DNA of 64,000 nt, from assembly GCA_020161835.1 (NCBI GenBank), contig JAIUNL010000004.1:65049-129048 (forward strand), given 5' to 3'. This DNA comes from Bacteroidota bacterium. GTDB lineage: Bacteria > Bacteroidota > JABWAT01. Position 1 is the first letter of the stretch; each line of letters begins with the position of its first letter. Position numbers and translations under genes: made by a program. Below the pieces are notes generated by a model. That model did no database searches. It was not told the origin of the DNA and worked only from the letters and a program-made list of their open reading frames with translations. Of the stretch, positions 4,361 through 27,150 are shown piece by piece.

Positions 4361-5815
4361 ATGAATACCCATAAAATTTCCCCGTTTTTCTTTCTTGCCC
4401 TGCTTCTCCCCCTGACAGGTACGTCTCAAAACTTTTCCCTCCCCGATGCGGTTCAGTCAGCCCTTTCCACCCATCCGAAACTGAAGCAAATGGAATCCCG
4501 GAAAGAACAAAAATCCGATCTGACCAAATCGTCCTGGGGAAATTATATGCCGTCAGTTTCCGTTCAGGGAACTTACAACCGGCTGAATGGTCCGCTCGAA
4601 ATTAATTTATCGCCGGTCCGGGAAGTCATTCTTCAGCTTCAGTCGAAAAACTCAGCAGAAATTAAAAATCTGTACGGAATTGCACAGGGTGCCGGTTCCA
4701 TGACCGATGCACAGAAAGCCCAGGTTGCAGCAGGAGCTTATCAGCAACTGGACAAATCCATTCCGGCTTTTGTGGAAAGTGTGAAAGATCAGACATATCC
4801 TTCCGCCAACATTACCGCCGTTCAGCCTCTTTTCACCGGTGGAAAACTGCTGGCAGCCTCTGGTTTTGCTAGAGCAGAAGAAGTTGCCGCCGATGCAGAA
4901 TTCAGAAAAACCCGGGAAGACATTATCCTTGAAACGACCAAATCGTACTGCACCGTATTACTGATGCAATCGGTTGTTGAAACCCGGAAACAGGTTCTCG
5001 TGGGCATGAAAATCCACCTGAAACAAGCTATCAAAGCCGAGTCGGAAGGACTGATTTCGTACCAGCAACGGCTCAGGGCAGAAGTTGCCGTGTCAGATGC
5101 AGATCAGAATTTATCCGCCGATCAGAATAATCTGGACCTTGCATTAACCGCTTTTAAATCCGTCGCCGGAATCCCGGAATCTGCTGTCATTTCGTTGACG
5201 GATTCTCTCTTTTTCCGGGAACTGTCCGATTCTGTTCAACTCGCCGGTTCCGGATTTTCCCATCAGCCGGTTCTGTCCCTGCTTTCTGCCAAAGAACAAT
5301 CAGCCGTTATGGGAAGCCGGGTTAAATTGTCTGAATTTATGCCAACCGTTGCCCTTTTCGGCCGGTATGAATTATTTCCTGATGATCTTTCTGTGCTGGA
5401 ACCGAAATGGATTGTTGGGGTTAGCCTCAGCATGAATTTGTTCCGTGGCGGATCATCTTATTACGACTGGCAAGCCGCAAAAAGTCAGGTTGATGAAGTG
5501 AAATTTGCCCGGAAGGAAGCAGAACGGCAGATCAGTTTATGGATGAGCAAATCGTGGCAAACCCAGAAAAGTGCTGCCAGCCGGTATCAGAATCTGGCCG
5601 TTAATGTGAAACTGGCCCAGGAAAATCTGCGTGTTGCAGAAACCCGTTTTAAAGCCGGAATGGCAACGTCTCTCGATGTCATTGATGCCCGGCTTGTTCT
5701 TGAAAAAAACCAGATTGACCGTCATCAGGCGTTGTTTACCTATCAGACGTCCGTGGCAGATTGTTATGCTGCAGCCGGACTTTCAGACCAAATTCTGACC
5801 TGGTGGGTTAAATAA
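4361..5815 (+). CDS. TolC family outer membrane efflux protein
   Basis: Signal peptide, 484 aa, two-repeat coiled-coil/beta architecture typical of OMF (TolC) proteins; operon position before HlyD-family adaptor. Confidence 0.75.
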   Translation: MNTHKISPFFFLALLLPLTGTSQNFSLPDAVQSALSTHPKLKQMESRKEQKSDLTKSSWGNYMPSVSVQGTYNRLNGPLEINLSPVREVILQLQSKNSAEIKNLYGIAQGAGSMTDAQKAQVAAGAYQQLDKSIPAFVESVKDQTYPSANITAVQPLFTGGKLLAASGFARAEEVAADAEFRKTREDIILETTKSYCTVLLMQSVVETRKQVLVGMKIHLKQAIKAESEGLISYQQRLRAEVAVSDADQNLSADQNNLDLALTAFKSVAGIPESAVISLTDSLFFRELSDSVQLAGSGFSHQPVLSLLSAKEQSAVMGSRVKLSEFMPTVALFGRYELFPDDLSVLEPKWIVGVSLSMNLFRGGSSYYDWQAAKSQVDEVKFARKEAERQISLWMSKSWQTQKSAASRYQNLAVNVKLAQENLRVAETRFKAGMATSLDVIDARLVLEKNQIDRHQALFTYQTSVADCYAAAGLSDQILTWWVK

Positions 5816-5846
5816 GTACGGAAAGAATTTTAAAAGGAAATTTGAA

Positions 5847-6827
5847 ATGAAATTGAATAAAACGTTACTCATTCTGCTGGTTCCCGTGATTCTGATTTCG
5901 GTAACGGTCGTTTATCTGCTGTTTAAACCGGAACCTGCCAACATCCGGGTGGGAATGATTGAGGCGCCGGAGACTGATATTGCTGTGAAAATCCCCGGAA
6001 GACTCGACAGTATTTTCGTTTCGGAAGGTGATGTGGTTTCTGCAGGAACCCGGCTCGGAACCATGAAAAGTCCGGAACTGCAGGCAAAAGCAAATGCTGC
6101 CGAAGACGCCTGGAAAGCAGCCAAACTGAAAGCCCAGATTGCCGGGAAAGGTGCGAGACCAGAAGAAATTAAGGCAGTGGAAAAACTGTATGAACAGGCC
6201 AGTCATCAGTTTGAACTGGCATCAAAAACCTGGAAACGGGTTCAGTCGGTTTATTCGGAAGGCGTCATGTCAACCCAGGAACGGGATCAGGCAGAATTTC
6301 AATTCAACGCTGCCCGTGATCAGATGGAAGCAGCAAAAGCCAAATCCGACATGGTGAAATCCGGACTCCGGCCCGAAGAAGTTCAGGCTGCAGAAGCCAT
6401 GGCTGCTGCTGCCGGAGAGCAATATAACGAAGTAAAAAGTTATCTGGACGAAACTCAGATTCAGTCACCGGTTGCCGGGGAAGTCACCAAAATTGTAGCA
6501 GATGCGGGTGAAATGGTTGCCGCCGGATATCCGGTTTTTACGGTCATAGACAGAAGTAAATCCTACGTCGTCATCAACGTCAGAGAAACCGATCTTGCTC
6601 TTATTAAAACAGGAACACAAATGCCGGGAAGGTTACCCGGACTTGGCGGCGAAACGGTCACCTTTGAAGTGTATTCTATTGCTGCTGCCGCCGATTATGC
6701 CACTTGGCGATCCACTCAGGAAAAAGCAGATTTCGATTTGAAAACTTTTGAAGTCCGCCTGAAACCCGTTTCGAAAGGAATTGATTTCCGTCCGGGAATG
6801 ACCGTTCAATTGGAATGGCCGGAATGA
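5847..6827 (+). CDS. HlyD family periplasmic adaptor (membrane fusion protein)
   Basis: N-terminal TM anchor, long Ala/Glu/Lys-rich coiled-coil hairpin, C-terminal beta-barrel-like domain; 326 aa; follows TolC gene. Confidence 0.75.
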   Translation: MKLNKTLLILLVPVILISVTVVYLLFKPEPANIRVGMIEAPETDIAVKIPGRLDSIFVSEGDVVSAGTRLGTMKSPELQAKANAAEDAWKAAKLKAQIAGKGARPEEIKAVEKLYEQASHQFELASKTWKRVQSVYSEGVMSTQERDQAEFQFNAARDQMEAAKAKSDMVKSGLRPEEVQAAEAMAAAAGEQYNEVKSYLDETQIQSPVAGEVTKIVADAGEMVAAGYPVFTVIDRSKSYVVINVRETDLALIKTGTQMPGRLPGLGGETVTFEVYSIAAAADYATWRSTQEKADFDLKTFEVRLKPVSKGIDFRPGMTVQLEWPE

Positions 6828-9198: not shown

Positions 9199-9254
9199 AA
9201 CAAAGGTTAAAGGTTTAATTGTAAAGGTTAAATGGGAAATGCAAATTTTCCCGC

Positions 9255-9865
9255 AGATCTAACGGATTTCTGCTGAAGAAAAAAGAGTTCAACCACAGAA
9301 ATATCAGAAGTCACAGAAAAAACTTCTTTTTAAAACCCGAATTCAATTCCTTTTATGCATATTCTGTACCTTCTGTGGTGAAAAGGTATTGGAGCCCTGA
9401 CTTCACTTTGTGACTTCCGCTGAAGAAAAAAGAGTTCAACCACAGAAACTACAGAAGTAGCAGAAAAAACTTCCTGTTTAAAACATAAACTCAATTCCTC
9501 TTCTGAATATTCTGTTTCTTCTGTGGTGGAAAGGTATTGAAGTCCTGACTTCACTTTGTGACTTCCGCTGAAGAAAAAAGAGTTTAACCACAGAAATAAC
9601 AGAAGAAGCAGAAGGTAATTTCCTTTTAAGAACCCGAATTCAATTCCTTTTCTGCATATTCTGTACCTTCTGTGGTGGAAAGGTATTGAAGTCCTGACTT
9701 CACTTTGTGATTTCCGCTGAAGAAAAAAGAATTCAACCACAGAAATATCAGAAGTCACAGAAAAAACTTCTTTTTAAAACCCGAATTCAATTCCTTTTCT
9801 GCATATTCTGTACCTTCTGTGGTGAAAAGGTATTGGAGGCGTGTCCTGAATTTGGGATTTCCAAT
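9255..9865. repeat. tandem array, ~4.1 copies of a 149-bp unit (family A of the 149/150-bp repeats)
   Basis: Unit starts at ~9271, 9420, 9569, 9717; copies ~85-95% identical; each unit contains imperfect inverted repeat AACCACAGAA...CAGAAG / CTTCTGTGGTG. Confidence 0.9.
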
Positions 9866-9978
9866 TTGAATACTTACAAGTAAATATTCAAAATGTTTCT
9901 TGTTTGATTAAACAATTTAAATACTTTAACTTCATTTATTCTAAACCCATCGAGTTTAAAAAAACCGGATAAAAAAAT

Positions 9979-10677
9979 ATGATGAACAAATTTACATACC
10001 CGACTTATTTCTTAGCCATTGTTTTTGTTATCACAATTTTTTCAGGCTGTACGGCCAATTATTCCCGGTTTTCGCCTGAGAGCCCCGAACAGATAAAGAA
10101 AATAAAAAGGATCGGATTATTAACCCCTGAAATCAATATCCGTGAAATCAGCGCTGGCGGCTCCAGTATCGTTTTAGGTGAACATACTGCAACTTCAAGG
10201 AAATATTTTATTGAAAACACAAAAAAGATATTTGAAAAAAAGGGCATTGAAGTCAAATTTATCGATCTGTCTGGTCAGGATTCGCTTCGTTTTATTGAAC
10301 CATTGGCCATGTACCGAACAATAAATAATGCCATCTTACAAAAAGATCCGTCTGAAACGAGGAATAATTTTCAATTTGAAATTGGCTCTCTTGACTCTCT
10401 TTCAGCACTCTACGAGGTTGATGGGTTTTTATTTCTTTCCGGATATGATTTAAAATCATCAACAAGCAGAGTCTTTGCTGAAACTGCATTAGTCGCAGTT
10501 GGGGGATTAGGGGCATCCGAAAAGAGAAGTTTACTCTGTCTTGGAATAGCAGATAAAAGCGGAAAATTACTTTTTCACAGTTATAACAATGAACCGGATA
10601 TCTGGATTTTTACCCGGGAACAAAGTGTTAAAGACCTGATGATTAAGGTGACAAGAGATTACACAAGAAAGCTTTAA
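9979..10677 (+). CDS. lipoprotein of uncharacterised family, paralog 1 of 3
   Basis: Signal peptide + lipobox (FSGC); shares blocks with ORFs 10932 and 13469: GC-T.DY.R.S, IK.I...GI..P, E[LI]SAGG, LAMYRT, GS[LI]DSL, VDGFLF..GY, GLADK.GK[IL]L. Confidence 0.6.
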   Translation: MMNKFTYPTYFLAIVFVITIFSGCTANYSRFSPESPEQIKKIKRIGLLTPEINIREISAGGSSIVLGEHTATSRKYFIENTKKIFEKKGIEVKFIDLSGQDSLRFIEPLAMYRTINNAILQKDPSETRNNFQFEIGSLDSLSALYEVDGFLFLSGYDLKSSTSRVFAETALVAVGGLGASEKRSLLCLGIADKSGKLLFHSYNNEPDIWIFTREQSVKDLMIKVTRDYTRKL

Positions 10678-10686
10678 GTTTTTTTC

Positions 10687-10724
10687 AATTTAGGGTAATC
10701 GTAATCCAATGATTACCCTAAATT
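10687..10724 (+). terminator. 14-bp perfect inverted repeat AATTTAGGGTAATC..GATTACCCTAAATT right after lipoprotein-1 stop (hairpin; no strong T-run)
   Basis: Seen in sequence; placement 10 bp after stop codon. Confidence 0.35.
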
Positions 10725-10931
10725 TTCACAAATTGATCTGTTAATCAAACAAAATGGTTTTTCCTGATAACCAGCACATGTTGTATTGAATCTATTTCCG
10801 CTTCCTTCCCGATCAAAAATTAACCTGTGATTATAAATTAAGTTTAGATTACCGTCTTATGATACTCTTATTGATTTGACCAAGCCGAACTCTTAACTTT
10901 AAACCCTACCCAGATGTTACCAAAACTTTGA

Positions 10932-11648
10932 TTGGATCCCAACATGAACTTTTCAAAAATGTCGTTTTTCACTTTTTTGGTTTTTGCAGGAATGACAATT
11001 TCCGGCTGTACGTCTGACTATACCCGTTTTTCTTCGAATGGCCATCAGCAAATCAAGCAAATAAAAAAAGTTGGAATTATTACCCCAGATGTTAAAGTTT
11101 ATGAACTTGGAGCAGGCGGAGCAAATACTCCTCTTGGAAAACAAACAGAAATTGCCCGGAATTTTCTTTTTGAGAATACAAAAGTATCATTGCAGAATCT
11201 GGGAATGAAGGTCAGAAAGATTGATTTGCAGGGAGGAGATTCCCTTCTTTTTCAGGAAACGTTGGCCATGTACCGCACAGTTGATGATGCCATTCTGGGT
11301 AAAAAGACAAGCGATACCAAGAAAAAATTTGAATATGATCTGGGTTCATTAGACTCCCTTGCATTATATTATGATGTCGATGCCTTTCTTTTCCTGAGAG
11401 GTTATGATACTGAACCCTCATCGAACCGCAGCGCAGCAGCAGTTGCAGGGGTGGTGACAGGCGTTCTTTTTGGCGTGGGCGTCATTTTACATGAACCCAG
11501 CTTTCTTTCTGTCGGACTTGCAGACCGTGACGGTAAAATTTTGTTTTATAACTTCAACAATGAAATGGATACCTGGAATTACACTAAGGAAAAAGATGTA
11601 AAAAAGCTGACTGAAAAGCTTTTCAAAGAATTCTCAAAGAAAAAGTAA
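10932..11648 (+). CDS. lipoprotein of uncharacterised family, paralog 2 of 3
   Basis: Signal peptide + lipobox (ISGC); conserved blocks as above. Confidence 0.6.
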   Translation: MDPNMNFSKMSFFTFLVFAGMTISGCTSDYTRFSSNGHQQIKQIKKVGIITPDVKVYELGAGGANTPLGKQTEIARNFLFENTKVSLQNLGMKVRKIDLQGGDSLLFQETLAMYRTVDDAILGKKTSDTKKKFEYDLGSLDSLALYYDVDAFLFLRGYDTEPSSNRSAAAVAGVVTGVLFGVGVILHEPSFLSVGLADRDGKILFYNFNNEMDTWNYTKEKDVKKLTEKLFKEFSKKK

Positions 11649-11669
11649 CTATGATTCAGGAAATGAACT

Positions 11670-12857
11670 ATGACCCGGTTTCCGTTTTTGTATAATTTTT
11701 TAACCATTTCCATTCTCTGTTTTGCATTTTCGCTTAAAGCACAGGAAAAAAAAGCGAGAATCTTCGAAAACGATGAAACAGAAATCTGGAAAGAAAGCCA
11801 GATCGAACAAAGAAAAATAAATGAAAGCGGACTCATTTACCAGGATGATTCACTCGAAGCCTATCTTAACAATGTTCTGATTAAGGTTACAGGAATTTAT
11901 CCTGAACCGATTCAGCCAAAAATAAAAGTTTTAAAAAGTCCCGTGTTAAATGCCTTCGCCTATCCAAACGGAGTCATGTATATCCATTCAGGCTTGCTTG
12001 CCAAAATGGAAAATGAATCCCAGCTTGCAACCTTACTCGGACATGAAATTACCCATTCTACCAACCGTCATGCTGTACTGGCCTTTCGCTCACAAAAGAG
12101 CAACAGTGACGCACTTGCATTTTTTAGCATTCTTTCAGGTGGATTTGGGTTGATTGGGGCAGTCGCACGTTTGATTGGTGAGGTGGGTTATATGGCATCG
12201 GTTTCCGGGTATTCTCAGGAATTGGAAAAGGAAGCTGATGGGGTTGGGTTTCAGCGAATGAAAAGATCTGGATACAACGTGACTGAAGCCCCCAAGCTGT
12301 TTGGAATACTCAAACGGGATCTTGATCAGGAACCACCTGCAGAAAAACAATCTTTCTTTTTCAGTTCACATCCAAAACTGGATGACCGGATAAAAAATTA
12401 CAACCAGCTTTTAAATAATTTAACGGTAAAACCAGATTCGGCAGGTGTTGATTCTGTTTTTATAAAGAAAACCAGAAAACTCCTCTTTGATAATATCGGA
12501 ATTGATATTCAGTCAGGACGTTATAATTCTGCTCATTTCTCTTCAATTGTTTATGCAACCAGATTCCCCTCAGATTACCGCATCTATCTGCTTCAGGCTG
12601 AAATTATGAACAAACGATTCCCTGATGATTCAAATAAACAAACTGAGGTAATGGAATTATATAAAAAAGTTGTTGATCTGGATTCTACCCAGGCAGAAGC
12701 ACAAAAAAATCTTGGAAAATGGCATTTTAAAAAGGGTGATTATACGGCTGCATTGCCCTATCTTGAAGCCTATTTGAAACTGTCACCTGATGCAAAAGAT
12801 AAAGGCTATATCGAAGGTTACCTCAGAAAAATTAAAACCTCAATGGATTCAAAATGA
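11670..12857 (+). CDS. M48 family zinc metallopeptidase with C-terminal TPR-like region (BepA/YfgC-like architecture)
   Basis: HEITH (HExxH), downstream ELEKEAD (third zinc ligand ExxAD) and SHPKLDDRI motifs characteristic of peptidase M48; signal peptide; C-terminal helical repeats. Confidence 0.75.
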   Translation: MTRFPFLYNFLTISILCFAFSLKAQEKKARIFENDETEIWKESQIEQRKINESGLIYQDDSLEAYLNNVLIKVTGIYPEPIQPKIKVLKSPVLNAFAYPNGVMYIHSGLLAKMENESQLATLLGHEITHSTNRHAVLAFRSQKSNSDALAFFSILSGGFGLIGAVARLIGEVGYMASVSGYSQELEKEADGVGFQRMKRSGYNVTEAPKLFGILKRDLDQEPPAEKQSFFFSSHPKLDDRIKNYNQLLNNLTVKPDSAGVDSVFIKKTRKLLFDNIGIDIQSGRYNSAHFSSIVYATRFPSDYRIYLLQAEIMNKRFPDDSNKQTEVMELYKKVVDLDSTQAEAQKNLGKWHFKKGDYTAALPYLEAYLKLSPDAKDKGYIEGYLRKIKTSMDSK

Positions 12858-13417
12858 AAAAAATAACGTACTCACTATTACTTCTTTCTATCTTTCTGGT
12901 TTCTTGTGGACCACAATGGAACACCGTTACAAAATCAGTTTCTGATAAAAAAACCGGTGCCGTTTTAGCTGCGCCAACCGGCTGGAAATACATGGAGCTG
13001 CAGAATAAAATTATGCTCACTCCTGACAGCCCGGATTTAGGACTTTTGGTTTATCAGGTTCTCTCTGTTTCAAACCCCATGCGGTTTACCAAACAAATTG
13101 TACAAAAAAATATGCTGCCTGAAGATTTGGCTGCACTGATTACTGATAATTACCAATTAAATCAGGGTTTATCTCAATTTAAAGTTTTAGAAAACAATCC
13201 GGAAGTATTGGCTGGAATTGAAGGATTTCGTCTTATTTCGGAATATAAATCGGGTGATGGTAACCCGATGAAAATGCTAACGGTTGGGATAAGTCTGCAG
13301 GATAATGCAGTCATTCTTGAATTTACAGCTCCGAAAAGAGTCTATTTTGATAAGTATAAACCTGAAATCGAAGCCATTTTAAGCAAATTCCAACTGTCAC
13401 CAGATCTAAAAAAATAA
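12854..13417 (+). CDS. hypothetical lipoprotein
   Basis: Signal peptide + lipobox (LVSCG); 4-bp overlap with M48 gene. Confidence 0.5.
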   Translation: MKKITYSLLLLSIFLVSCGPQWNTVTKSVSDKKTGAVLAAPTGWKYMELQNKIMLTPDSPDLGLLVYQVLSVSNPMRFTKQIVQKNMLPEDLAALITDNYQLNQGLSQFKVLENNPEVLAGIEGFRLISEYKSGDGNPMKMLTVGISLQDNAVILEFTAPKRVYFDKYKPEIEAILSKFQLSPDLKK

Positions 13418-13468
13418 GTTGACCTTACTTTTTCAAAACTGAATATTTTACTTATAAAAAGTTCTCCA

Positions 13469-14206
13469 ATGAAAAAAAACAGTATCCTTTTTTCAGTTCT
13501 TCTATTAAACTGGGTGATATTCAACGGTTGTACTCCTGATTATACAAGGTATTCTTCAAAAGGCCCTTATCTGGTTCAAAGTATAAAAACCATTGGAATT
13601 ATTTCACCTGATTTGGGAATTTTCGAGTTAAGTGCCGGCGGAAGTTCTGAAAAACTTGGAGCAGAATCTGAAAAATCCAAAGTGCTTATTCTAAACGCTT
13701 TTACATCCGAGTTAAAAAAATCTGGAATTGAAGTAAAACTAATCGATTTAAAGGGTCCCGATTCCACCCGTCTTGATGAAACACGTGCCATGTTCAAAAC
13801 GGTAAATGAGGTTATTCTTACAAAAAGTACTGATGAAACCAAATGGAAATTTGAATTTGACATCGGTTCAATAGATTCTCTTGCCACACAGTATCAGGTT
13901 GATGGATTTCTTTTTATTCAGGGATATGAAACCCGGAATTCTGCCGGGAGAAATTTTGCAGCGACGGCGGGCGTTGTTTCTGCTGTATTGGTTGGATCAG
14001 GTACGGTTTACCATAACCCCTATTTAATCTCTTTTGGGTTAGCTGATAAAAAAGGCAAAATTCTGTTGCATAATCATCAAACGGGCGTTGACGGCTCAAA
14101 ATGGACACTTGACGATGCGGAAGAAGTAACAGAAATGACTGAATTTTTATTCAAAACATTTCATGAAGGACTTAAAATCGTTTACAAAATACCAAAAAAG
14201 AAATAG
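13469..14206 (+). CDS. lipoprotein of uncharacterised family, paralog 3 of 3
   Basis: Signal peptide + lipobox (FNGC); conserved blocks as paralogs 1 and 2. Confidence 0.6.
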   Translation: MKKNSILFSVLLLNWVIFNGCTPDYTRYSSKGPYLVQSIKTIGIISPDLGIFELSAGGSSEKLGAESEKSKVLILNAFTSELKKSGIEVKLIDLKGPDSTRLDETRAMFKTVNEVILTKSTDETKWKFEFDIGSIDSLATQYQVDGFLFIQGYETRNSAGRNFAATAGVVSAVLVGSGTVYHNPYLISFGLADKKGKILLHNHQTGVDGSKWTLDDAEEVTEMTEFLFKTFHEGLKIVYKIPKKK

Positions 14207-14351
14207 CCGGTTATCAGAAAAATTGATGCTGAGTTTGATTTACCATTAATCATTGCCCCTTAACCATTATAGCCTTTTTCCCTTCACTTTTACTATGTAA
14301 TTTGTCCTCCGAATCCATCAAAGGCAGGATTAAAATATCACTGTAACTTTC

Positions 14352-14725
14352 ACTTAAGAAAAATGGGTTTAACCACAGAAATTACTGAAGGAGCAGAAAG
14401 AAATTTCCCAATAAAAACCCGAATTCAATTCCTTTTCTGCATATTCTGTGTCTTCTGTGGTGAAAAGGTATTGGAGTCCTGTCCTGACTTTGTGATTTCA
14501 TCTGAAGAAAAAAAGAGTTTAACCACAGAAATTACAGAAGGCACAGAAGGAAATTCCCTATTAAAAACCTGAATTCAATTCCTTTTCTGCATATTCTGTG
14601 TCTTCTGTGGTGAAAAGGTATTGGAGTCCTGTCCTGACTTTGTGATTTCATCTGAAGAAAAATGGGTTTAACCACAGAAATTACAGAAGGAGCAGAAAGT
14701 AATTTCCCAATAAAAACCCGGATTC
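14352..14725. repeat. tandem array, ~2.5 copies of the 149-bp unit (family A)
   Basis: AACCACAGAAATT recurs at 14371, 14521, 14671; unit ~85% identical to the 9255-9865 units. Confidence 0.9.
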
Positions 14726-14761
14726 AAGATTCATTAACCATTAATCATTTACCATTAACCA

Positions 14762-15730
14762 TTATTCCCCTGCGTCTTCCGCATCAAAGCCTTGTTCTCT
14801 GAGCCACCGGCTGAAAATTCCTTCTGTTCCATGAGTTACGATGATTTTGTCAGCTCCGGATTCAGTTATCGCCTTATTTAATGCCGGCCAATCAGCATGA
14901 TCTGACAAAATAAATCCACGGTCAAACGCCTGCCAGTTTCTTCTCTTACTCACCGCCATCCACCCCGAAGCAAAAGCAACCGAATACGGTTCAAACTGAG
15001 TCATGAACGGTGATCCTTTCCCCGAAACCGGTGTGATCACCAATCCCCGTCTGAGTTCCTCCGGCTTCACTGAGTCAACCAGTAAATTGACTTTTGGAAC
15101 GGGAATTCCAAATTCCCGGAGTGACTGATTCATGGTCTCCACGGAAGGATGACAGAAAACAGGTCCGGTTGAATAATCGAGATGATGAAGAATCCGTTGG
15201 GCTTTTCCCAAAGAGTAGGCGTTCAATACGGAAGTTTTTCCTTCAGCCTGGTTTTGTTTCCACCAGCGGTTGATTTCAGCAAAAACCTGATCCTGATCGG
15301 GCCAGCGATAAATGGGAAGTGCAAAAGTTGCTTCAGTGATGAAGGTGTTGCATGTCACAGTTTCAAAAGGCTGGCAAACCCGGTCATTTTCAAGTTTGTA
15401 ATCTCCCGACGCCACCCAGACTTCACCCTGATACTCCACACGGACCTGAGCCGAACCGATGATATGTCCTGCCGGGTGCAAACTGATCGTAACGCCGTTG
15501 ATGGTTACCGGGACACCATACTCTTCAGTTCTGAGGCGAATATTTTTCCCGAGACGGGTTTTGAGAACCGGTTCAGAGTCACGGTGAGCGAAATAAGAAG
15601 CGTGCCCGGACCGGGCATGATCTGAATGTCCGTGCGTAATCACAGCCCGCTGAACAGAACGAAGCGGGTCGATGTAAAAATCTCCGGCTTCGCAGTAAAT
15701 TCCGTTGGGTGTAAATTGGAGAAGGGGCAT
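14762..15730 (-). CDS. metallo-beta-lactamase fold exonuclease (ligase-associated DNA damage response exonuclease-like)
   Basis: N-terminal LQFTPNGIYCEAGDFYIDP...VITHGHSDH motif (HxHxDH MBL signature); 322 aa. Confidence 0.5.
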   Translation of the reverse strand: MPLLQFTPNGIYCEAGDFYIDPLRSVQRAVITHGHSDHARSGHASYFAHRDSEPVLKTRLGKNIRLRTEEYGVPVTINGVTISLHPAGHIIGSAQVRVEYQGEVWVASGDYKLENDRVCQPFETVTCNTFITEATFALPIYRWPDQDQVFAEINRWWKQNQAEGKTSVLNAYSLGKAQRILHHLDYSTGPVFCHPSVETMNQSLREFGIPVPKVNLLVDSVKPEELRRGLVITPVSGKGSPFMTQFEPYSVAFASGWMAVSKRRNWQAFDRGFILSDHADWPALNKAITESGADKIIVTHGTEGIFSRWLREQGFDAEDAGE

Positions 15731-17917: not shown

Positions 17918-18020
17918 GGGGATAATTCCGAATTACGAATGACGAAACGAAGTTCTGCGAAGCAAATTTTAAATTTTGAATTTTAAAAATTGAAGAATGA
18001 AAAAAATCTTTGATTTAATT

Positions 18021-18130
18021 GTCATTCCCGCGAAGGCGGGTCATGAAATGTGCGAAGCAAGTCCAGTATTTATTCAAACAAACTAATACAAAATTCAATT
18101 ATGGATTCCCGCCTTCGCGGGAATGACATC
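18021..18130. repeat. two inverted copies of a small palindromic element forming a perfect 19-bp inverted repeat (TCATTCCCGCGAAGGCGGG ... CCCGCCTTCGCGGGAATGA) between selU and selD
   Basis: Seen in sequence; ~65-nt spacer. Confidence 0.8.
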
Positions 18131-18156
18131 AGTTTATACCATTAAACATTAACCAT

Positions 18157-19197
18157 TTACCATTGAGCCTTAAGCCTACCTAAAGCCTCCACCACCCGGT
18201 CAGCATTTCCCGCCGGATCAATCTTTTCGCATGGAACACGGATGATCGATTCCGGATCCCGTTTCGACGTCCCGAAATCATAGCCCGGATCGTAATAACG
18301 GGTCAGCAGAAATTCGGACAAGGTCAGCCAGTCACCGGTTTCAAGCCAGAGAAGACATTGTTTCGTATCGGTTCCGCCCAGTTTTTCCCGGATTTTCAGA
18401 ATTGATTTTTCCAGATTGACCGGTTCGGTTTTGCCGTATTCTTCAACCAGCTTTTTCGCCCGTTCCTGAACCGGAATATCCAGATAGATTACCGGCGCCG
18501 TTCTCATTTTCGGCCAGAAAAATTCATTGATCTGAATGGATCCGGTCTTGTGACTTTCATCTTCCAGCCAAACCACTTTTTCAGGATTTACCGAAACCCA
18601 ATCCAACCCAAGATCGTTGTCAAACTGTTCCTGAGTCGGTTGAGCAGGTTGATCGATGTCACCAAATGCAGAACCTTTGTGATTTGCAAGCAGTTCCAAA
18701 TCGATGATCTGCTGATTTCTTTCCGGAAGGAGGTGAAGCACATCTGTTTTCCCTGAACCGGTTCTTCCGCCAAGAATCACCAGTGGCTTTGAGGTTTTAA
18801 ATTCCTCAAGAATATGGCGGCGGTAAGCCTTATATCCGCCATTGACGATGTAAACAGTATATCCATAAAAACCGAGAAGCCAACCCACCGCACCGCTTCT
18901 CATTCCGCCACGCCAGCAATGAACCAAAACAACCCGGGAATCGGTAACCGATTTAACCTGTTCGATGATTGGCCGCATTTTGGGTCCGACAAAATCCAAC
19001 CCTTTGAGAATTGCCGCCTGCTTGCCTTCAGTTTTGTAAGTCAATCCGATGATATGCCGTTCTTCAACAGAAAAAAGAGGGAGATTCAGGGCACCTGGAA
19101 TGTGTCCCTGACGGAATTCTGCTTCGGTACGGACATCAAAAACGGGGAATTGTTTTCGTTTAACGAGGAATTCAGAATTGTCGCAATGGAACGTCAT
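18157..19197 (-). CDS. selU: tRNA 2-selenouridine synthase
   Basis: N-terminal rhodanese domain (VDVRTEAEFRQGHIPGALNLP, CWRGGMRS) and P-loop GGRTGSGKT; 346 aa; adjacent to selD. Confidence 0.8.
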   Translation of the reverse strand: MTFHCDNSEFLVKRKQFPVFDVRTEAEFRQGHIPGALNLPLFSVEERHIIGLTYKTEGKQAAILKGLDFVGPKMRPIIEQVKSVTDSRVVLVHCWRGGMRSGAVGWLLGFYGYTVYIVNGGYKAYRRHILEEFKTSKPLVILGGRTGSGKTDVLHLLPERNQQIIDLELLANHKGSAFGDIDQPAQPTQEQFDNDLGLDWVSVNPEKVVWLEDESHKTGSIQINEFFWPKMRTAPVIYLDIPVQERAKKLVEEYGKTEPVNLEKSILKIREKLGGTDTKQCLLWLETGDWLTLSEFLLTRYYDPGYDFGTSKRDPESIIRVPCEKIDPAGNADRVVEALGRLKAQW

Positions 19198-19700
19198 AGT
19201 TTTTGCAGAAAGTAAATTGTAAAGATACGAAATTTTAAAATACCGGGGACGGAATGGTTACAGGTCACGGATTACGGGTAACGGGAAATACAGGGATTTA
19301 GAAAAGTCTTGAAATCGATTTGCTTCTTCGCCGTCATCCGGTCGACGCCGCGGCCAATGAAGTGCCCTGACAAAAAATGTCAGTGTCTGCTTTTTAAAAT
19401 TTGCTTTGTGCTTAATCGTCTATGTTCTGACATTTTTCAGGGCCGAAGTGCCAGCCGCAAGTCAAAGAGCGGATGGGCGAAAAGGGATTTTGGGTACTTT
19501 TGTCCCGTCAAAAGTACCTCTCCGAAGGAAAAACCACCTATTTGGATGAAGGAGTTTTACAGAACTTCGTTAACCATCAGTGACTGAAAATTTATCAACC
19601 ATTTGAAAAAAAAACATGGATCCCGGCTCGTAGGCCGGGATGACAACTAAAGAGTCTGTATTTACCATTCATTTCCCTTTAATCTGTCAATTTCCTACCT

Positions 19701-20609
19701 TTGCAGGTTTTAACTGAAATTGAAAAGAGGACTGTTGTGGCGAAGGAAAAACTCGTCAATGTGGGCATGATTCAGGTTTCCTGTTCAAAGGATCCTGCTG
19801 AAAACATGAAAAAAACCATTCTGAAAATCCGGGATACTGCAAAAGCCGGTGCTCAGATCATCGTTCTTCAGGAATTATTCAAGTCACTTTATTTCTGTGA
19901 TGTTGAAGATTACGACAATTTCAATCTGGCAGAGCCAATCCCTGGTCCTTCTACCGATGAACTGGGAATAGTTGCAAAAGAACTTGGCGTGGTCATCGTG
20001 GCTTCCCTTTTCGAAAAACGGACGGAAGGATTGTATCACAACACAACCGCCGTCCTGGATGCTGACGGAACATACCTCGGGAAATACCGGAAAATGCACA
20101 TTCCGGATGATCCTTCCTTTTACGAGAAATTTTATTTTACACCGGGAGATCTGGGCTACAAAGTTTTTGATACGAAGTTTGCGAAAATCGGCGTCCTGAT
20201 CTGCTGGGATCAGTGGTACCCTGAAGCAGCAAGAATCACAGCGTTAATGGGTGCTGATCTCCTTGTTTATCCGACTGCAATCGGCTGGGCCACCTCACAG
20301 GATGAAGCAACCAACGATGAACAGTACAACGCCTGGCAAACCATTCAGCGCGGACATGCCGTCGCAAACGGCGTTCATGTGGTTTCGGTAAACCGTGTCG
20401 GACTTGAAGGCGAACTGAATTTCTGGGGCGGATCGTTTATCTCAAATCCGTTCGGAAGATTGTTGTACAAAGCCAGTCACGATAAAGAAGAAATCCATGT
20501 CGAAACCCTGGATTTAAGCAAAACCAATTCGTACCGGATTCACTGGCCATTTTTAAGAGACCGAAGGATCGATTCCTACGACCCAATACTTAAAAGGTTT
20601 ATAGATTAG
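19701..20609 (+). CDS. aguB: N-carbamoylputrescine amidase (carbon-nitrogen hydrolase family)
   Basis: CN-hydrolase N-terminus KLVNVGMIQVSCSKDPAENMKKTI...GAQIIVLQELF and catalytic Cys region ICWD; true start may be slightly downstream of the ORF-track start. Confidence 0.7.
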   Translation: MQVLTEIEKRTVVAKEKLVNVGMIQVSCSKDPAENMKKTILKIRDTAKAGAQIIVLQELFKSLYFCDVEDYDNFNLAEPIPGPSTDELGIVAKELGVVIVASLFEKRTEGLYHNTTAVLDADGTYLGKYRKMHIPDDPSFYEKFYFTPGDLGYKVFDTKFAKIGVLICWDQWYPEAARITALMGADLLVYPTAIGWATSQDEATNDEQYNAWQTIQRGHAVANGVHVVSVNRVGLEGELNFWGGSFISNPFGRLLYKASHDKEEIHVETLDLSKTNSYRIHWPFLRDRRIDSYDPILKRFID

Positions 20610-20688
20610 GTAGGGCAGACCGCAAAGGCCCAAAGTCGCTAAGAAATTCAATCTTTTAGAAAATACAAAGAATTAAAAATTAATTTCT

Positions 20689-21108
20689 ATGATTAAATCT
20701 GGGTTTAGGAATGAAATTCAGAGTGAAGAATTAAATAATCTTGCGAAAATAATTGTTGATTCTTGTTATGAAGTTCATCGGAATATTGGTCCCGGCTTGC
20801 TCGAATCTGTATATGAAAATTGTCTTGAGATTGAATTAAAACACCGTGGAATTAAAACTGACCGGCAAGTCCCGGTTCCTTTGAAATATAAAAATGTGGA
20901 TCTTGAAAAGGAATTTTATATTGACCTGTTGGTTGAAGATAAAATTGTAATTGAAATAAAAGCAGTTGAAACCATGATTCCTGTTTTTGAAGCTCAACTT
21001 CTTTCTTATTTAAAACTGGCAGATAAACGGCTCGGTTTTCTGGTGAACTTCAATGTTCCTTTAATTAAATATGGAATTCGCCGTTTCGTAAATGGTTTGG
21101 AAAAATAA
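20689..21108 (+). CDS. GxxExxY family protein
   Basis: GPGLLESVYENCLEIEL motif (G-x-x-E-x-x-Y); 139 aa. Confidence 0.7.
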   Translation: MIKSGFRNEIQSEELNNLAKIIVDSCYEVHRNIGPGLLESVYENCLEIELKHRGIKTDRQVPVPLKYKNVDLEKEFYIDLLVEDKIVIEIKAVETMIPVFEAQLLSYLKLADKRLGFLVNFNVPLIKYGIRRFVNGLEK

Positions 21109-21232
21109 TCATTTTTTTGCTCTTAACTATAAAATAATTAGAGTCTTAGCGCCTTTGGGGTCTCTTTGAATTATCCTTTGTCTTTAACTTTAAAAAACTT
21201 AGCGTCTTAGCGCCTTTGGGGTCTCCTTTCCA

Positions 21233-22279: not shown

Positions 22280-24094
22280 ATGAAATTAAATTTCAGACCC
22301 ATTTTCATGCTATTTTTCTCTTTCTCACTGAGTTCTTGTGAACCCTATGAGCCTCAGGGTGAGAATTTTGTGGAAGTTGCAAAGCCGGAACTTAATGTTG
22401 GGCTTCAGTTGAACAATAAAAATCCGGGTGTAACATTTTCGATATATGGTCAAAATAATTTTACTATCTCAAGAAATCTGGGAAATAAAAGGGAAAGGGA
22501 ATTGACCGTTTTTGTTGACGAAAAGCTGGTTGGTGATTTTACCTTTAAAGACTCCTTTTCGATAGATGGCAGTAAATTATCAGATGGCACTCACACAATA
22601 AAAATTAAATTGATTACCAGTACCAGCTCTGGCAGTCTCGCCGATAAATTAAAAACAGAATATATAACCTATTCCCCAACGTGGAATTTAATGGTAGATA
22701 AGCAATTAACTGGTTTTTCCAATCCATTAACCTACACGATAGAAGATGGATTTTTAGTTATCAATTGGCAAAAATATTCAGGTATTGGGTTTGAGTATTA
22801 TAACCTGAAATATATTGACGTATACCGTAACGAAATTTCGAACCGGATTACCGACATCAATACAACCAGTTTTAAAATTCTGACAATACCATTAAATCCA
22901 AGCACAGTTGTTGTGGAACTCGCAGCAAAAGGAAAAAAAGTTTCATCCCCTGTATTAAATGTTGCAATTCCTACCCAAATTAATCTTTTATCGCCCGAAA
23001 GAATAAATGAACAGGAATATAAATTCACATGGAGCCGGCCAATCTTATACGGACCGATTTCTCAATATTCTGTTGTTGATCAATATGGAAGATCTTATGG
23101 TAATACGTCAGATTCATCGCTTACCTGTATTCCCAGTAGAATTGGTCAGGGCGTTGAGTATAAGATTATTGCAACTCCATTTTCCTCCAACTCAGTTAAG
23201 TTAAATCTGGGAACACGGATTTTTAATAATTTTTCAGTGGCCTGGCCAGACGAGAAAAACAACCGGTTTTTACACTATAATTCTACGCTTTCAACTATGT
23301 TTAGTATAAGTGGAGTTGACGTTGCAACCAAAATATCAGTGCCTCAGATCAACAAGCCGGTTGTTTCTCAGGACTTGACCTATTTTGCAGGGCTTTCAGG
23401 CAAATCTATAAATGGTAAATACTGGAAACAAATTGATATATATAGAACCAGTGATTTCATAAAAATTCAATCTATAAACCTTGATGATTTTTACCCCACA
23501 ATTTATGGTTATGTCGAATCAGTTATGATGAATGGAGATCACCTGGTCTTTAATGTTTATGAAGATGACAAGAATCCAAATAATAATGATAAACCATTAA
23601 AATTTCTTGGTTTTTTTTCCATTTCAAAAGGGAAAAAAGTTAAAGATTTGTTTTACATAGAAAATATTAAACTTATAACTGCAGATGCAAAACGGGCAAT
23701 TACTTCCTCGGGTGCGGTTTATGACATTTCAGGAATCAGTTCGGTTGCAATTTCAGATGTGCCAGTTAACGGCGGGTACCTGCCCTATAATATTATCCCA
23801 AATCCTTTGGACAATTCTTTTATTGGAATTTACTATGATGGAAAGGTCACTTTATTTGATTTGGCACCATCCGTAATTGTTAAAAGTGAATTTGATTTTA
23901 AATTTCCAAACACGATTAATTTTTTTGGTCTCTCACAAAACCTGGATGTTGCCGGTATTGAAATAGATACAAGAATACTTTTGTACAACACGTTATCAAA
24001 CACAATTATTTCAACTTACAGCTATGATGGAAGTTGCTATTTATATGGTGACTACCTCATCACCTCTTTAGGATATCAGGTAAAATGGAGATGA
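22280..24094 (+). CDS. large hypothetical lipoprotein (possible Ig/FN3-like repeats)
   Basis: Signal peptide + lipobox (LSSCEP); 604 aa; AT-rich. Confidence 0.45.
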   Translation: MKLNFRPIFMLFFSFSLSSCEPYEPQGENFVEVAKPELNVGLQLNNKNPGVTFSIYGQNNFTISRNLGNKRERELTVFVDEKLVGDFTFKDSFSIDGSKLSDGTHTIKIKLITSTSSGSLADKLKTEYITYSPTWNLMVDKQLTGFSNPLTYTIEDGFLVINWQKYSGIGFEYYNLKYIDVYRNEISNRITDINTTSFKILTIPLNPSTVVVELAAKGKKVSSPVLNVAIPTQINLLSPERINEQEYKFTWSRPILYGPISQYSVVDQYGRSYGNTSDSSLTCIPSRIGQGVEYKIIATPFSSNSVKLNLGTRIFNNFSVAWPDEKNNRFLHYNSTLSTMFSISGVDVATKISVPQINKPVVSQDLTYFAGLSGKSINGKYWKQIDIYRTSDFIKIQSINLDDFYPTIYGYVESVMMNGDHLVFNVYEDDKNPNNNDKPLKFLGFFSISKGKKVKDLFYIENIKLITADAKRAITSSGAVYDISGISSVAISDVPVNGGYLPYNIIPNPLDNSFIGIYYDGKVTLFDLAPSVIVKSEFDFKFPNTINFFGLSQNLDVAGIEIDTRILLYNTLSNTIISTYSYDGSCYLYGDYLITSLGYQVKWR

Positions 24095-24807
24095 AAAATA
24101 AATTCTATTTTCTTATTGGTTTCTTTATTATTGCCTTAAGTCTCAATGTCCAGGCACAGGTAACGATTTCTGGTAATAGAATATTTGCTTTTGGAGAAAC
24201 ATCAGATTTGGATGATATTCCAAATGCAATTGTTGAATTATATCAAAAAGAAGAAATTGAAATGAAGGTAACTGATCGGTTCCCGGCCAGGCCAAATTAT
24301 GAAGTACGGGTTTCGTTCGGAAATATTTTTGGTGAAAATTTAAAATTGGGAGGCAGTTTTAATTACTTTTCAACCGGCTCAAAAATAACTTACGCAGATT
24401 ACTCGGGGGAGATCAATGAAATTCTTGTCTTCGAAAGAAAATCTTTTGAAATCTTTCTGGGGCAACCCATATATTCCAGTGGGAATCGTATTTCAGTTAT
24501 CGGAACTATTTCTGCAGGAGTAAACTTTTCAACTGTAAAGCTCAATTCATCGTTGACTCTTTACGACCAATCTGCTGAAGAAAATACGACATTCGAAAGT
24601 CAATCCTGGTTTTCAGAACCTGCACTTGAAGTCCAGGTAAGGTTGTTTTACGGTTTGTTTATAGCTGGAACCGGGTCAGTCAATTTAAATATTTCCTCTC
24701 AATTAAAAAATGATTCTGGAAATGGTTTATTTAATTCAAATGGGAAGGAAATTCAAATGAATACTTCTGGCCCAAGATTTAAAATCGGATTAGGTTACAC
24801 CTTCTGA
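24085..24807 (+). CDS. putative outer membrane beta-barrel protein
   Basis: Signal peptide, alternating hydrophobic strands, C-terminal GLGYTF aromatic terminus; 240 aa. Confidence 0.4.
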   Translation: MEMKNKFYFLIGFFIIALSLNVQAQVTISGNRIFAFGETSDLDDIPNAIVELYQKEEIEMKVTDRFPARPNYEVRVSFGNIFGENLKLGGSFNYFSTGSKITYADYSGEINEILVFERKSFEIFLGQPIYSSGNRISVIGTISAGVNFSTVKLNSSLTLYDQSAEENTTFESQSWFSEPALEVQVRLFYGLFIAGTGSVNLNISSQLKNDSGNGLFNSNGKEIQMNTSGPRFKIGLGYTF

Positions 24808-25650: not shown

Positions 25651-26745
25651 ATGGGTCTTAGAATTGGTATTGTCGGACTTCCAAACGTGGGAAAGTCCAC
25701 GCTTTTTAACGCAATTACATCAGCCGGAGCACAGGCTGCGAACTTCCCTTTTTGTACCATCGAACCTAACGTCGGCGTTGTTGACGTTCCGGATGAACGC
25801 CTTTGGGTTCTGAAAGAAATCGTTGGAACCGATAAAGTTATTCCGGCTGCCGTTGAATTTGTTGACATCGCCGGCCTCGTCAAAGGTGCGTCAAAAGGTG
25901 AAGGTTTGGGAAATCAGTTCCTTTCCAACATCCGGGAATGCGATGCCATTCTGCACGTCGTTCGTTGTTTTGATGATGATAACGTCATTCACGTCGATGG
26001 ATCGGTCAATCCGAAAAGAGATATTGAAGTCATTGAAACCGAACTCATTTTCAAAGATCTCGATACCCTTGAGAAAAAGCTTCAGCGAACAGCTCGCGGA
26101 CTCAAATCCGGCGATAAAAAAGCAAAAGAAGACACTGATTTGTTGATGGCATTGAATGATCACTTCGGTCAGGGAAAACCCGTCAGAACATTTCCGGCAA
26201 CACCTGAACAGAAGGAAGTCTTTGCCGATTGTTTTTTCCTGACTGATAAGCCGGTTCTTTATGTTGCCAACGTGGCTGAAAAGGATATCCTCACCGGAAA
26301 TAATTACGTGAAACAGGTAAAGGAAATCGCAGACGCCGAAGGAGCAAGAATCGTCACCATTTCTGCAGCCATTGAAGCAGAAATTGCCGAACTTCCAATG
26401 GAAGAAAGAAAAGATTTTCTTGCCGGATTAGGACTTGATAAATCCGGACTAGATCAGATCATCACGATCGGATTTGATATGCTCGGTTTGATGACCTACT
26501 TCACTGCCGGTAAAATTGAAGTGAGAGCCTGGACGATTCACAAAGGCGACAAAGCCCCTCAGGCAGCCGGTGTCATTCATACTGACTTCGAAAAAGGATT
26601 TATCCGCGCTGAAGTTCAGAAATATGACGATATCGTTCGTCTGAAATCTGAAGCTGCAGTTAAAGAAGCCGGCTTGCTGAAAGTTGAAGGAAAAGATTAC
26701 GTTGTCCAGGATGGCGATGTCATGCACTTCAGGTTTAATGTTTAA
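25651..26745 (+). CDS. ychF: redox-regulated ATPase YchF (Obg-family GTPase)
   Basis: MGLRIGIVGLPNVGKSTLFNAIT G1 motif, DIAGLVKGASKGEGLGNQFL, C-terminal TGS domain; 364 aa. Confidence 0.9.
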   Translation: MGLRIGIVGLPNVGKSTLFNAITSAGAQAANFPFCTIEPNVGVVDVPDERLWVLKEIVGTDKVIPAAVEFVDIAGLVKGASKGEGLGNQFLSNIRECDAILHVVRCFDDDNVIHVDGSVNPKRDIEVIETELIFKDLDTLEKKLQRTARGLKSGDKKAKEDTDLLMALNDHFGQGKPVRTFPATPEQKEVFADCFFLTDKPVLYVANVAEKDILTGNNYVKQVKEIADAEGARIVTISAAIEAEIAELPMEERKDFLAGLGLDKSGLDQIITIGFDMLGLMTYFTAGKIEVRAWTIHKGDKAPQAAGVIHTDFEKGFIRAEVQKYDDIVRLKSEAAVKEAGLLKVEGKDYVVQDGDVMHFRFNV

Positions 26746-26849: not shown

Positions 26850-27150
26850 CCGCCGGATAAAAACCATTGTTAACCGCAGAAAGAACAGAAATAACAGAAA
26901 AATAAATTCAACCTTTTAAACCTGATTTTATTTCCATTTCTGTCCATTCTGTATCTTCTGTGGTGTAAAAGCATTTGGCATTTTGTCTTCAACCAAGCCA
27001 TTCAAAAGTTGGCCAAAAAAACCAGTTTAACCGCAGAAATAACAGAAATAACGGAAAATTAAATTCAAATCTTTAAATCCGAATTCATTTCCCTTTCTGT
27101 CCATTCCGTATCTTCTGTGGTGAAAAAGCATTTGGCATTTTGTCTCAAAT
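26850..27150. repeat. tandem array, 2 copies of a ~150-bp diverged variant (family B) of the 149-bp repeat
   Basis: TTAACCGCAGAAA..ACAGAA...CTTCTGTGGTG core at 26869 and 27018; overlaps the TTG start of the downstream sigma-54 activator ORF. Confidence 0.85.

Follow-up and report, generated by a model that had tools for sequence, protein, structure and literature searches.

Does a set of lipoprotein genes framed by direct repeats constitute a mobile cassette, a variable surface locus or a functional module built on a protease? This question is raised by an AT-rich block in a 64-kb stretch of contig JAIUNL010000004.1 from a Bacteroidota bacterium (hereafter the window, meaning the whole stretch that was analysed). 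The block holds genes for three paralogous lipoproteins (p1, p2 and p3), an M48 zinc metallopeptidase and a further lipoprotein of 187 amino acids, and together with the two arrays of one 149-bp repeat on either side of it forms the feature under study. An earlier note, made from the sequence alone, had proposed a module of the paralogs and the peptidase or, alternatively, a variable lipoprotein cassette, with the arrays as a substrate for excision. Here, we show that the core of the block is a conserved operon encoding a ~240-aa lipoprotein, an M48/TPR protease and a ~185-aa PsbP/DcrB-like lipoprotein; the module is a three-gene operon rather than a protease with paralogs around it. We consider it probable that the block as a whole is a vertically inherited, fast-diverging envelope locus built on this operon, in which the two lipoproteins would serve the protease as a platform, and that the repeats are a separate matter.

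Two lipoproteins and an M48 protease in one operon

Nine independent neighbourhoods of genes from the p1-p3 lipoprotein family were read. The M48 gene lies directly 3′ of the lipoprotein gene in all nine, and is usually followed by a gene whose product of 178-189 aa matches PsbP or DcrB. The order lipoprotein, M48(+TPR) and PsbP-like protein was found in relatives of the window organism (L001, which is the ‘Bacteroidetes bacterium’ metagenome-assembled genome GCA_017303995.1, L134 and L135-137) and in unrelated hosts (L004, L006, L007, L138/139 and L140/141); the L005 contig ends inside the gene 3′ of its lipoprotein gene. Distant family members, at 18-31% identity, likewise have the M48 gene directly 3′, with the PsbP-like gene of ~185 aa next where the contig continues. 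The G+C content (GC) of the hosts of these loci ranges from 0.37 to 0.74, and the junctions within the triad are mostly 4-bp overlaps. In the window, p2 ends 21 bp before the M48 gene, and the start of the 187-aa lipoprotein gene overlaps the M48 stop by 4 bp. One triad is located between ruvC and ruvA (L138/139), others beside prfA and rpmE or beside the gene for an extracytoplasmic function (ECF) sigma factor. Since the surrounding neighbourhoods are otherwise unrelated, the triad is a conserved unit.

The proposal that paralogs and M48/TPR peptidase form a functional module is borne out by this recurrence of M48 next to a family member in distant contexts. Membership of the paralogs in a known family with conserved synteny lacking M48 would speak against it; no family match was obtained, M48 adjoins in the neighbourhoods read, and the only locus without it is that of a fusion protein (P0157) described below. 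A literature search on M48 proteases together with PsbP- or DcrB-type lipoproteins returned no paper.

M48 proteases such as BepA, LoiP and YcaL of E. coli have a central part in quality control of the outer membrane; BepA (YfgC) is a periplasmic M48/TPR protease that docks on the β-barrel assembly machinery (BAM), its C-terminal domain of several TPRs making contact with BAM and LptD. The 395-aa peptidase of the window matches Peptidase_M48 of Pfam (PF01435) at 92.2 bits against a cut-off of 20.3, and its translation contains the HEITH, EKEAD and SSHPKLDDR motifs, in agreement with the earlier assignment to M48 metallopeptidases with TPR. The TPR matches, at residues 322-381, are each below their Pfam cut-off, and matches to consensus TPR proteins are strong. 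The catalytic and regulatory residues are HEITH at 125-129, E186, D190 and H234-P-K-L-D-D-R240 (an HPX4R motif), among which HExxH, E186, D190, H234, P235 and R240 are invariant in an alignment of nine M48 orthologs (A3). A hydrophobic Gly-rich segment at around residues 150-180 lies, judged by eye and unaligned to BepA, roughly at the place of the BepA α-6 lid. In BepA, the zinc ligands are those of HExxH plus a Glu, an Asp stabilises the plug, and HPX4R is the autoinhibitory plug itself, its His serving as fourth zinc ligand (PMC13655028). Both the HPX4R plug motif and the Asp are present in the window protein, which by these residues is predicted to be of the autoinhibited M48 type.

The closest solved catalytic domains are those of a Geobacter protein (3c37, profile E 4.9e-39) and BepA (6ait/6sar, E 1.8e-30). 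Like BepA, the window protein is an exported envelope protein that combines an M48 domain, a C-terminal TPR region, the HPX4R motif and a lid-like segment. However, it fails the BepA equivalog model (NF052400; 86.7 bits, cut-off 570, the aligned residues 88-243 covering the catalytic core only), is ~90 residues shorter, and has TPR matches over only ~60 residues. Also unlike BepA, its distant orthologs are themselves lipoproteins, with a canonical lipobox (LAGC or LAAC) at an invariant Cys where the window copy has an atypical SILC, and the M48 gene always lies between two dedicated lipoprotein genes, which to our knowledge is not the case for bepA. Lipid anchoring at the envelope, uncertain for the window copy, is shared with the outer-membrane lipoproteins LoiP (YggG) and YcaL. 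These lack a TPR tail, and we know of no partner operon described for either, whereas the M48 protein of the window has both and fails the LoiP model (NF052399; 47 bits, cut-off 365).

The 187-aa lipoprotein is an integral and conserved third member of the module, a role that the earlier note had not recognised. Six of its nine orthologs match PsbP (PF01789; best 5.5e-9) and four of the nine match DcrB. The window copy stays below both the DcrB and the PsbP cut-offs (DcrB, PF08786: 20.5 bits, cut-off 27.2, E 5e-4), and PsbP chains of the PDB are matched at E 0.07 at best. Like DcrB of E. coli, the protein is a small lipoprotein; unlike other members of the PsbP/DcrB/Mog1 superfamily, its family has no photosystem context and holds a set place in an M48 protease operon. 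A natural fusion joins the first component to the third. P0157 (423 aa) is encoded at 4507-5778 of a 6088-bp contig from JGI sample 3300050046, beside a LysR regulator gene; hhalign places its residues 50-242 in the lipoprotein family (98.8%, E 1e-16) and residues 254-417 in the PsbP-like family (97.8%, E 1e-12). Fusion is a classic type of evidence that two proteins act together, and suggests this for the two lipoproteins of the triad; because no M48 gene lies beside P0157, they may also work without the protease.

The three paralogs are mutually 39-45% identical, and the motif blocks they had been reported to share fall among 60+ invariant alignment columns. Each has a signal peptide that in translation ends in G-C (VSC in the 187-aa protein). 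A word-indexed protein search with a paralog reached no further than its counterparts in three close strains, whereas a profile search of 1.84 billion representatives returned 474 clusters at E<=1e-3, 130 of them at E<=1e-10, mostly of 230-260 aa. None of p1, p2 and p3 matches a model in Pfam or NCBIfam. The same check on 81 family members (alignment A2; 18-43% identical to p3) assigned none of them to a Pfam or NCBIfam family, two of the 81 giving weak matches to DUF4136 (best 0.0021), and the view that the paralogs belong to no named family thus stands. No sequence-profile match to PelC, LptE, LpoB, CsgG or DUF799 was found among the 81, and the best PDB matches of the family profile had E>0.1.

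Based on the 81-member alignment, AlphaFold2 predicts an α/β lipoprotein fold for p3 with high confidence (pLDDT 92.6, pTM 0.86). The model superposes on solved lipoproteins of the PelC/LptE/PqiC type, with structure-comparison figures of 10.0, 9.5 and 9.0 for PelC, 9.6 for HpaA, 7.6 for GNA1162 (DUF799), 7.5 for CT253, 7.2 for DUF4136, 7.1 for the TolB N-domain, 7.0 each for TraT and CsgG, 6.7 for LpoB and 5.5 for PqiC and LptE. Foldseek agrees weakly (PqiC, 6osx, LptE). A Gly/Ala-rich hydrophobic helix lies at about residues 159-175 of the model, and p1 and p2 have matching stretches. The paralogs are, on this prediction, an unnamed sequence family with the known PelC/LptE/PqiC/TolB-N type of lipoprotein fold. 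The lipoproteins in question (PelC, LptE, PqiC, LpoB, CsgG, TraT, the TolB N-domain, GNA1162, DUF4136 and HpaA) are likewise small α/β envelope proteins, several of them ring-forming. The paralogs are only 6-17% identical to PelC/LptE-type lipoproteins, with no sequence-profile link, and are longer (~240 aa, with extra helices); their genomic partners are M48 and PsbP-like genes in place of Pel, Lpt, Pqi, penicillin-binding protein or curli genes. A literature search on PelC-type dodecameric lipoproteins with TolB yielded no paper.

Composition, paralog history and divergence of the block

The features of the block are collected in Table 1. All five genes are on the forward strand and of the sizes first reported, and the reported AT-richness of the block was confirmed by measurement. 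Its GC is 36-39% inside DNA of ~48-49%, or 0.32-0.44 in 400-bp segments over 9200-14750 versus 0.47-0.52 in both flanks. By gene, the five have GC of 0.37-0.39 and GC at third codon positions of 0.29-0.37, versus 0.45-0.50 and 0.46-0.53 in flanking genes. On the left, the block is flanked by two ABC-2 permease genes, the second with its stop at 9198, and on the right by a ligase-associated exonuclease gene on the reverse strand (14762-15730; TIGR04122, 452 bits). The inverted repeat directly 3′ of p1 (ATTTAGGGTAATC ... GATTACCCTAAAT, followed by TTTTCAC) is likely a terminator, by which p1 would be a transcription unit of its own. A scan for sigma-70 promoters and terminators of consensus type showed no enrichment over shuffled sequence and did not pick up this repeat, and the motif TAnnTTTG has no occurrence in the intergenic spacers.

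Table 1 Features of the AT-rich block and of the repeat arrays, in window coordinates
Feature	Position	Strand	Basis
Repeat array 1, between ABC-2 permease stop and p1	9268-9857	+	TRF, nhmmer unit profile
Paralog p1, lipoprotein, 232 aa, lipobox FSGC	9979-10677	+	ORF translation
Putative terminator 3′ of p1, perfect 13-bp inverted repeat	10688-10723	+	Read from sequence
Paralog p2, lipoprotein, 238 aa from TTG or 234 aa from ATG at 10944, lipobox ISGC	10932-11648	+	
M48 zinc metallopeptidase with short C-terminal TPR region, 395 aa, signal peptide	11670-12857	+	Pfam PF01435
PsbP/DcrB-superfamily lipoprotein, 187 aa, lipobox LVSC	12854-13417	+	Ortholog Pfam matches
Paralog p3, lipoprotein, 245 aa, lipobox FNGC	13469-14206	+	AlphaFold2 model
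39-nt direct duplication, left copy	14232-14270	+	Repeat search, 85% identity
Repeat array 2, between convergent ends of p3 and exonuclease gene	14348-14727	+	TRF, nhmmer
39-nt direct duplication, right copy, overlapping (CATTAAC)n 7-bp repeat	14727-14765	+	
Repeat array 3, diverged	26850-27152	+	TRF, nhmmer
TRF, Tandem Repeats Finder; ORF, open reading frame.

In L001, the island is present at the same place and is likewise AT-rich. Flanking genes of the window and L001 encode proteins 94-99% identical (synonymous divergence, dS, 0.14-0.47) and p1 is close to these values (91%, dS 0.35), as against 82% for M48 (dS 1.37), 80% for the 187-aa lipoprotein (dS 1.27) and 79% for p3 (dS 0.74), where a dS near 1.3 is close to saturation. 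The segment from M48 to p3 coalesces far deeper than its flanks. The simplest reading of these values is that a divergent haplotype was imported by recombination; alternatively, a locally higher mutation rate may be the cause. Because the ratio of non-synonymous to synonymous divergence (dN/dS) of the island genes is 0.08-0.15, they are judged functional and under purifying selection.

The paralog content differs among relatives. The slot of paralog 2 in L001 is occupied by a gene (p2′) that is only 40% identical to window p2, and a 135-bp remnant of p2 is found upstream of it (L001 7288-7416, matching window 11514-11648 at 79%). Window p2 is instead orthologous to p2 of L134 (60%) and L135 (54%). 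In the more distant L135, p2 and p2′ stand in tandem 5′ of M48, and the island follows a TetR-OEP-HlyD-ABC2-ABC2 efflux operon as it does in the window, while its right flank is not that of the window. In a neighbour-joining tree the paralogs of the lineage all fall into a single clade, which splits into p1, p2, p2′ and p3; among these four groups p2′ is basal. The single clade, the tandem pair in L135 and the p2 remnant in L001 together indicate a lineage-specific expansion with differential losses, p2′ now missing from the window and L134, and p2 from L001. In L001, p2′ and M48 share 4 bp, an overlap also seen with the single lipoprotein gene of most unrelated hosts, and p2′ is therefore probably the original partner.

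The variable cassette of the earlier note is thus supported in part. Paralog number does vary among close relatives and the block does diverge faster than its flanks; gene conversion does not appear to be ongoing, since DNA matches between paralogs reach 65-72% at most and no long identical tracts are shared, and dN/dS is low. These data also bear on a broader alternative, in which the block is a surface-lipoprotein locus diversified by phage or predators, its variants exchanged by homologous recombination and the M48 and PsbP-like genes merely carried along. The drop in identity from the flanks to M48, the 187-aa protein, p3 and above all the paralog-2 slot would be expected of such a locus, and the rise in dS from M48 to p3 fits an imported haplotype with its right end near array 2; the AT-rich patches at 22-25 kb and 50-53 kb likewise encode lipoproteins or proteins of outer-membrane type, the first of them (22280-24807) being absent from L001. 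Yet dN/dS gives no sign of diversifying selection on whole genes, M48 and the PsbP-like gene are as diverged as the lipoproteins, the paralogs lack long identical tracts, and elsewhere the triad resides in housekeeping neighbourhoods (ruvC-ruvA, prfA-rpmE). We therefore regard this alternative as unlikely, and retain the vertically inherited, fast-diverging envelope locus.

AT-rich patches similar to the block are located at 22-25 kb, 50-52 kb and 55-56 kb of the window. The first (22280-24807, GC 0.34-0.38) encodes a 604-aa lipoprotein and a 240-aa signal-peptide protein resembling an outer-membrane protein; in L001 the pair is absent and PAD_porph and TPM-domain genes adjoin, so that these envelope genes were inserted or deleted in a strain-specific manner. 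With a GC of 0.31-0.37, 50026-53252 on the reverse strand exceeds all other patches of the window in AT content; its products are a lipoprotein-like protein of 281 aa and one of 796 aa resembling a barrel of the TonB-dependent type. Intergenic differences between the window and L001 comprise window gaps at 17968-18185, 19287-19659 and 20608-21232.

The hairpin repeats and the cassette question

Tandem Repeats Finder (TRF) and an nhmmer profile built from eight repeat units, run over the window, confirmed the two same-orientation 149-bp arrays with coordinates within about 15 bp of those first given, and added a third that had been missed. By TRF, array 1 (9268-9835) has 3.8 copies of period 148 with 87% matches, corresponding to about four units by nhmmer; array 2 has 2.6 copies of period 150 with 89% matches; and the diverged array 3 (26859-27145) has 1.8 copies of 157 bp. 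All units are on the forward strand, and nhmmer found no solitary copies in the window outside the three sites. Array 3 has no island beside it; it lies 3′ of a 364-aa gene (25651-26745) and slightly overlaps a TTG-start ORF (27140-28858). A sub-threshold match to the Rfam family Chlorobi-1 just 5′ of array 1 (9229-9290; 18.1 bits, gathering score 50, E 0.034) is probably due to chance.

Each unit consists of a ~93-nt imperfect hairpin, a small second hairpin and an A-rich tail. The hairpin arms (AACCACAGAA..CAGAAG..CAGAA / TTCTG..TTCTGT..CTTCTGTGGTG) each hold three RCAGAA / TTCTGY words 9 nt apart, and folding of either strand predicts the hairpin (z -2.1 to -3.1 in five of six folds). Over 14 hairpin copies, RNAalifold found a compensatory change in none of 19 predicted pairs, and it is therefore the sequence that is conserved, as in protein-recognised DNA of the REP (repetitive extragenic palindromic)/REPIN or MITE (miniature inverted-repeat transposable element) type, rather than a structured RNA. 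Rfam gave no match in the window at gathering scores, and chance-level matches only on array 1 at permissive E-values. Readings of the hairpin base (GTTYAAC; TTAACCACA) as an attC site or DnaA box were rejected, the partner half-site being missing and GC-rich copies lacking the motif.

All repeat sites in the window and L001 are intergenic. L001 has four units at the left of its island (5699-6285) and one degraded unit at the right (10740-10885); L134 has a single unit directly 5′ of its p2 gene, where the window has none; and L135 has the island with no repeat unit at all. Farther afield, a pattern of 24 specified bases from the right arm was found in eight metagenome contigs, five of them from sample Ga0180009 (GC 63-65%). 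Four of these five carry a complete solitary hairpin (L126 85-181, L129 7064-7151, L130 3718-3803 and L132 7114-7200) and one the right arm only (L131 about 2318-2346). The hairpins are ~93 nt long with arms nearly identical to those of the window repeat and a different, GC-rich loop, and come from one or more unrelated high-GC organisms. This distribution suggests a widely spread element recognised by its sequence. Searches of plasmid and viral contigs with the repeat gave no match; a scan of 596 Gb of genome contigs with the 19-mer TTCYGTNNCTTCTGTGGTG gave at least 118 stretches, nearly all chance, the true match among those listed being the L001 contig; and the spurious 142-aa ORF of array 1, used as a protein query, had one near-identical match (P0158). 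An unrelated intergenic tandem repeat occurs in L001 (17016-17163; 57 bp, 2.6 copies, 96% matches) with no BLAST match in the window, beside a PDDEXK_3 gene that is only about 70% identical over 170 bp.

A 39-nt duplication rich in CATTAAC-like heptamers (Table 1) encloses array 2 along with a 75-nt leader. Its downstream copy is the only one in L001, and the duplication may have been left behind when array 2 was placed or expanded. It could also be read, together with the direct arrays of about 590 and 380 bp, the sharp fall of GC at both of them and two short-read contigs that carry the ABC-2 permease gene of the window and break off within about 120 bp of its stop, where array 1 lies in the window, as the mark of an island gained by horizontal transfer, with the arrays as ends between which recombination would excise, amplify or move it. 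The arrays, however, do not behave as ends. The same TetR-OEP-HlyD-ABC2-ABC2 operon precedes the island in L001 and in the repeat-free L135, repeats differ in number and position between L001 and L134, the right array of L001 is down to one degraded unit, and the repeat also stands at 26.8 kb of the window and, singly, in unrelated organisms. In addition, none of the five block proteins has an integrase or transposase domain, no tRNA was noticed in the block, though no tRNA scan was made, and the repeat is not matched by plasmid or viral contigs. No long inverted repeats were found, and no island-free junction was seen among the few genomes at hand. The mobile cassette is the weakest of the readings considered here, one to which we give hardly any credence.

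The arrays are instead separate hairpin repeats, probably of the REP/BIME (bacterial interspersed mosaic element) or MITE type, tandemly amplified in AT-rich intergenic DNA, and not island boundaries. They share with REP/BIME, REPINs and MITEs such as Correia and ERIC their intergenic position, a ~90-nt imperfect palindrome with sequence-conserved arms, a copy number that varies between strains and a presence in unrelated genomes; they differ in the head-to-tail arrangement at a 148-bp period and in the three TTCTGY/RCAGAA words per arm. The 64 kb hold three sites of the repeat. No transposase or binding protein turned up with it, though no search was aimed at a transposase. The case cautions against inferring a mobile cassette from AT-rich DNA with arrays on either side.

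A possible platform for a latent protease

For the operon itself, we hypothesise that the two lipoproteins form a membrane-anchored platform which tethers the latent M48 protease to the envelope and controls the place and the target of its unplugging, in the way BAM does for BepA. The gene overlaps would provide coupled, stoichiometric expression, and the paralogs p1, p2, p2′ and p3 could be alternative platform or adaptor subunits. The same synteny would also be seen if the paralogs were dedicated substrates or stoichiometric inhibitors of M48, with the PsbP-like protein as their chaperone or adaptor, and nothing computational separates this alternative from a scaffold. Each paralog has the hydrophobic Gly/Ala-rich helix (~159-180), which a lid-bearing M48 protease could attack, and several paralogs per protease would fit a set of substrates; DUF1795 Eag chaperones, relatives with the DcrB/PsbP fold, bind hydrophobic helices. 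However, dedicated protease-substrate pairs rarely keep a 4-bp translational coupling across phyla, and the fusion of lipoprotein and PsbP-like protein without an adjacent M48 gene would be expected of a stable pair more than of a transient substrate. We consider a substrate or inhibitor role rather unlikely, and prefer the platform.

Several observations weigh against our interpretation of the locus. Synteny, overlapping genes, a single fusion and the analogy with BepA and BAM are the grounds for inferring a platform or adaptor role, and the census of gene contexts covers nine loci, not hundreds. The anchoring of the window M48 protein is uncertain because of its atypical lipobox, the DcrB score of the 187-aa window copy is under the Pfam cut-off and its single-sequence model has a pLDDT of 40, the P0157 locus is without an adjacent M48 gene, and the paralog set of the window lacks p2′, presumably the original partner. 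With regard to the repeats, most sites in the lineage are in or at the island (two of the three window arrays, both L001 sites and the one L134 site). Some association of repeat and island is real, and may come from a preference for AT-rich intergenic DNA or from simple inheritance.

The mechanisms by which BepA is silenced and switched on at BAM have only just been worked out (PMC13655028, PMC13478230). Against this background, the triad presents an M48/TPR protease with plug and lid features of the BepA type that is hard-wired to two lipoproteins in hosts of 37-74% GC, and it is a candidate for the partner-dependent localising or activating of M48 proteases. Tentatively, and with doubts that outweigh our confidence, we suggest that it may represent an undescribed and widespread envelope machine of diderms, in which ring-forming lipoproteins of PelC/LptE fold and lipoproteins of PsbP/DcrB fold would act as a platform licensing an autoinhibited M48/TPR protease. 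If true, this would be a self-contained counterpart of BAM-BepA, and paralog expansion of the kind seen in the window would direct a single protease to several different platforms or substrates. The operon also gives a first clue to function for an unannotated family of lipoproteins, which comprises at least 474 sequence clusters and is named in no database. Within the lineage of the window organism, the differential loss of paralogs and the deep allelic divergence inside 98%-identical flanks are a possible marker of envelope diversification.

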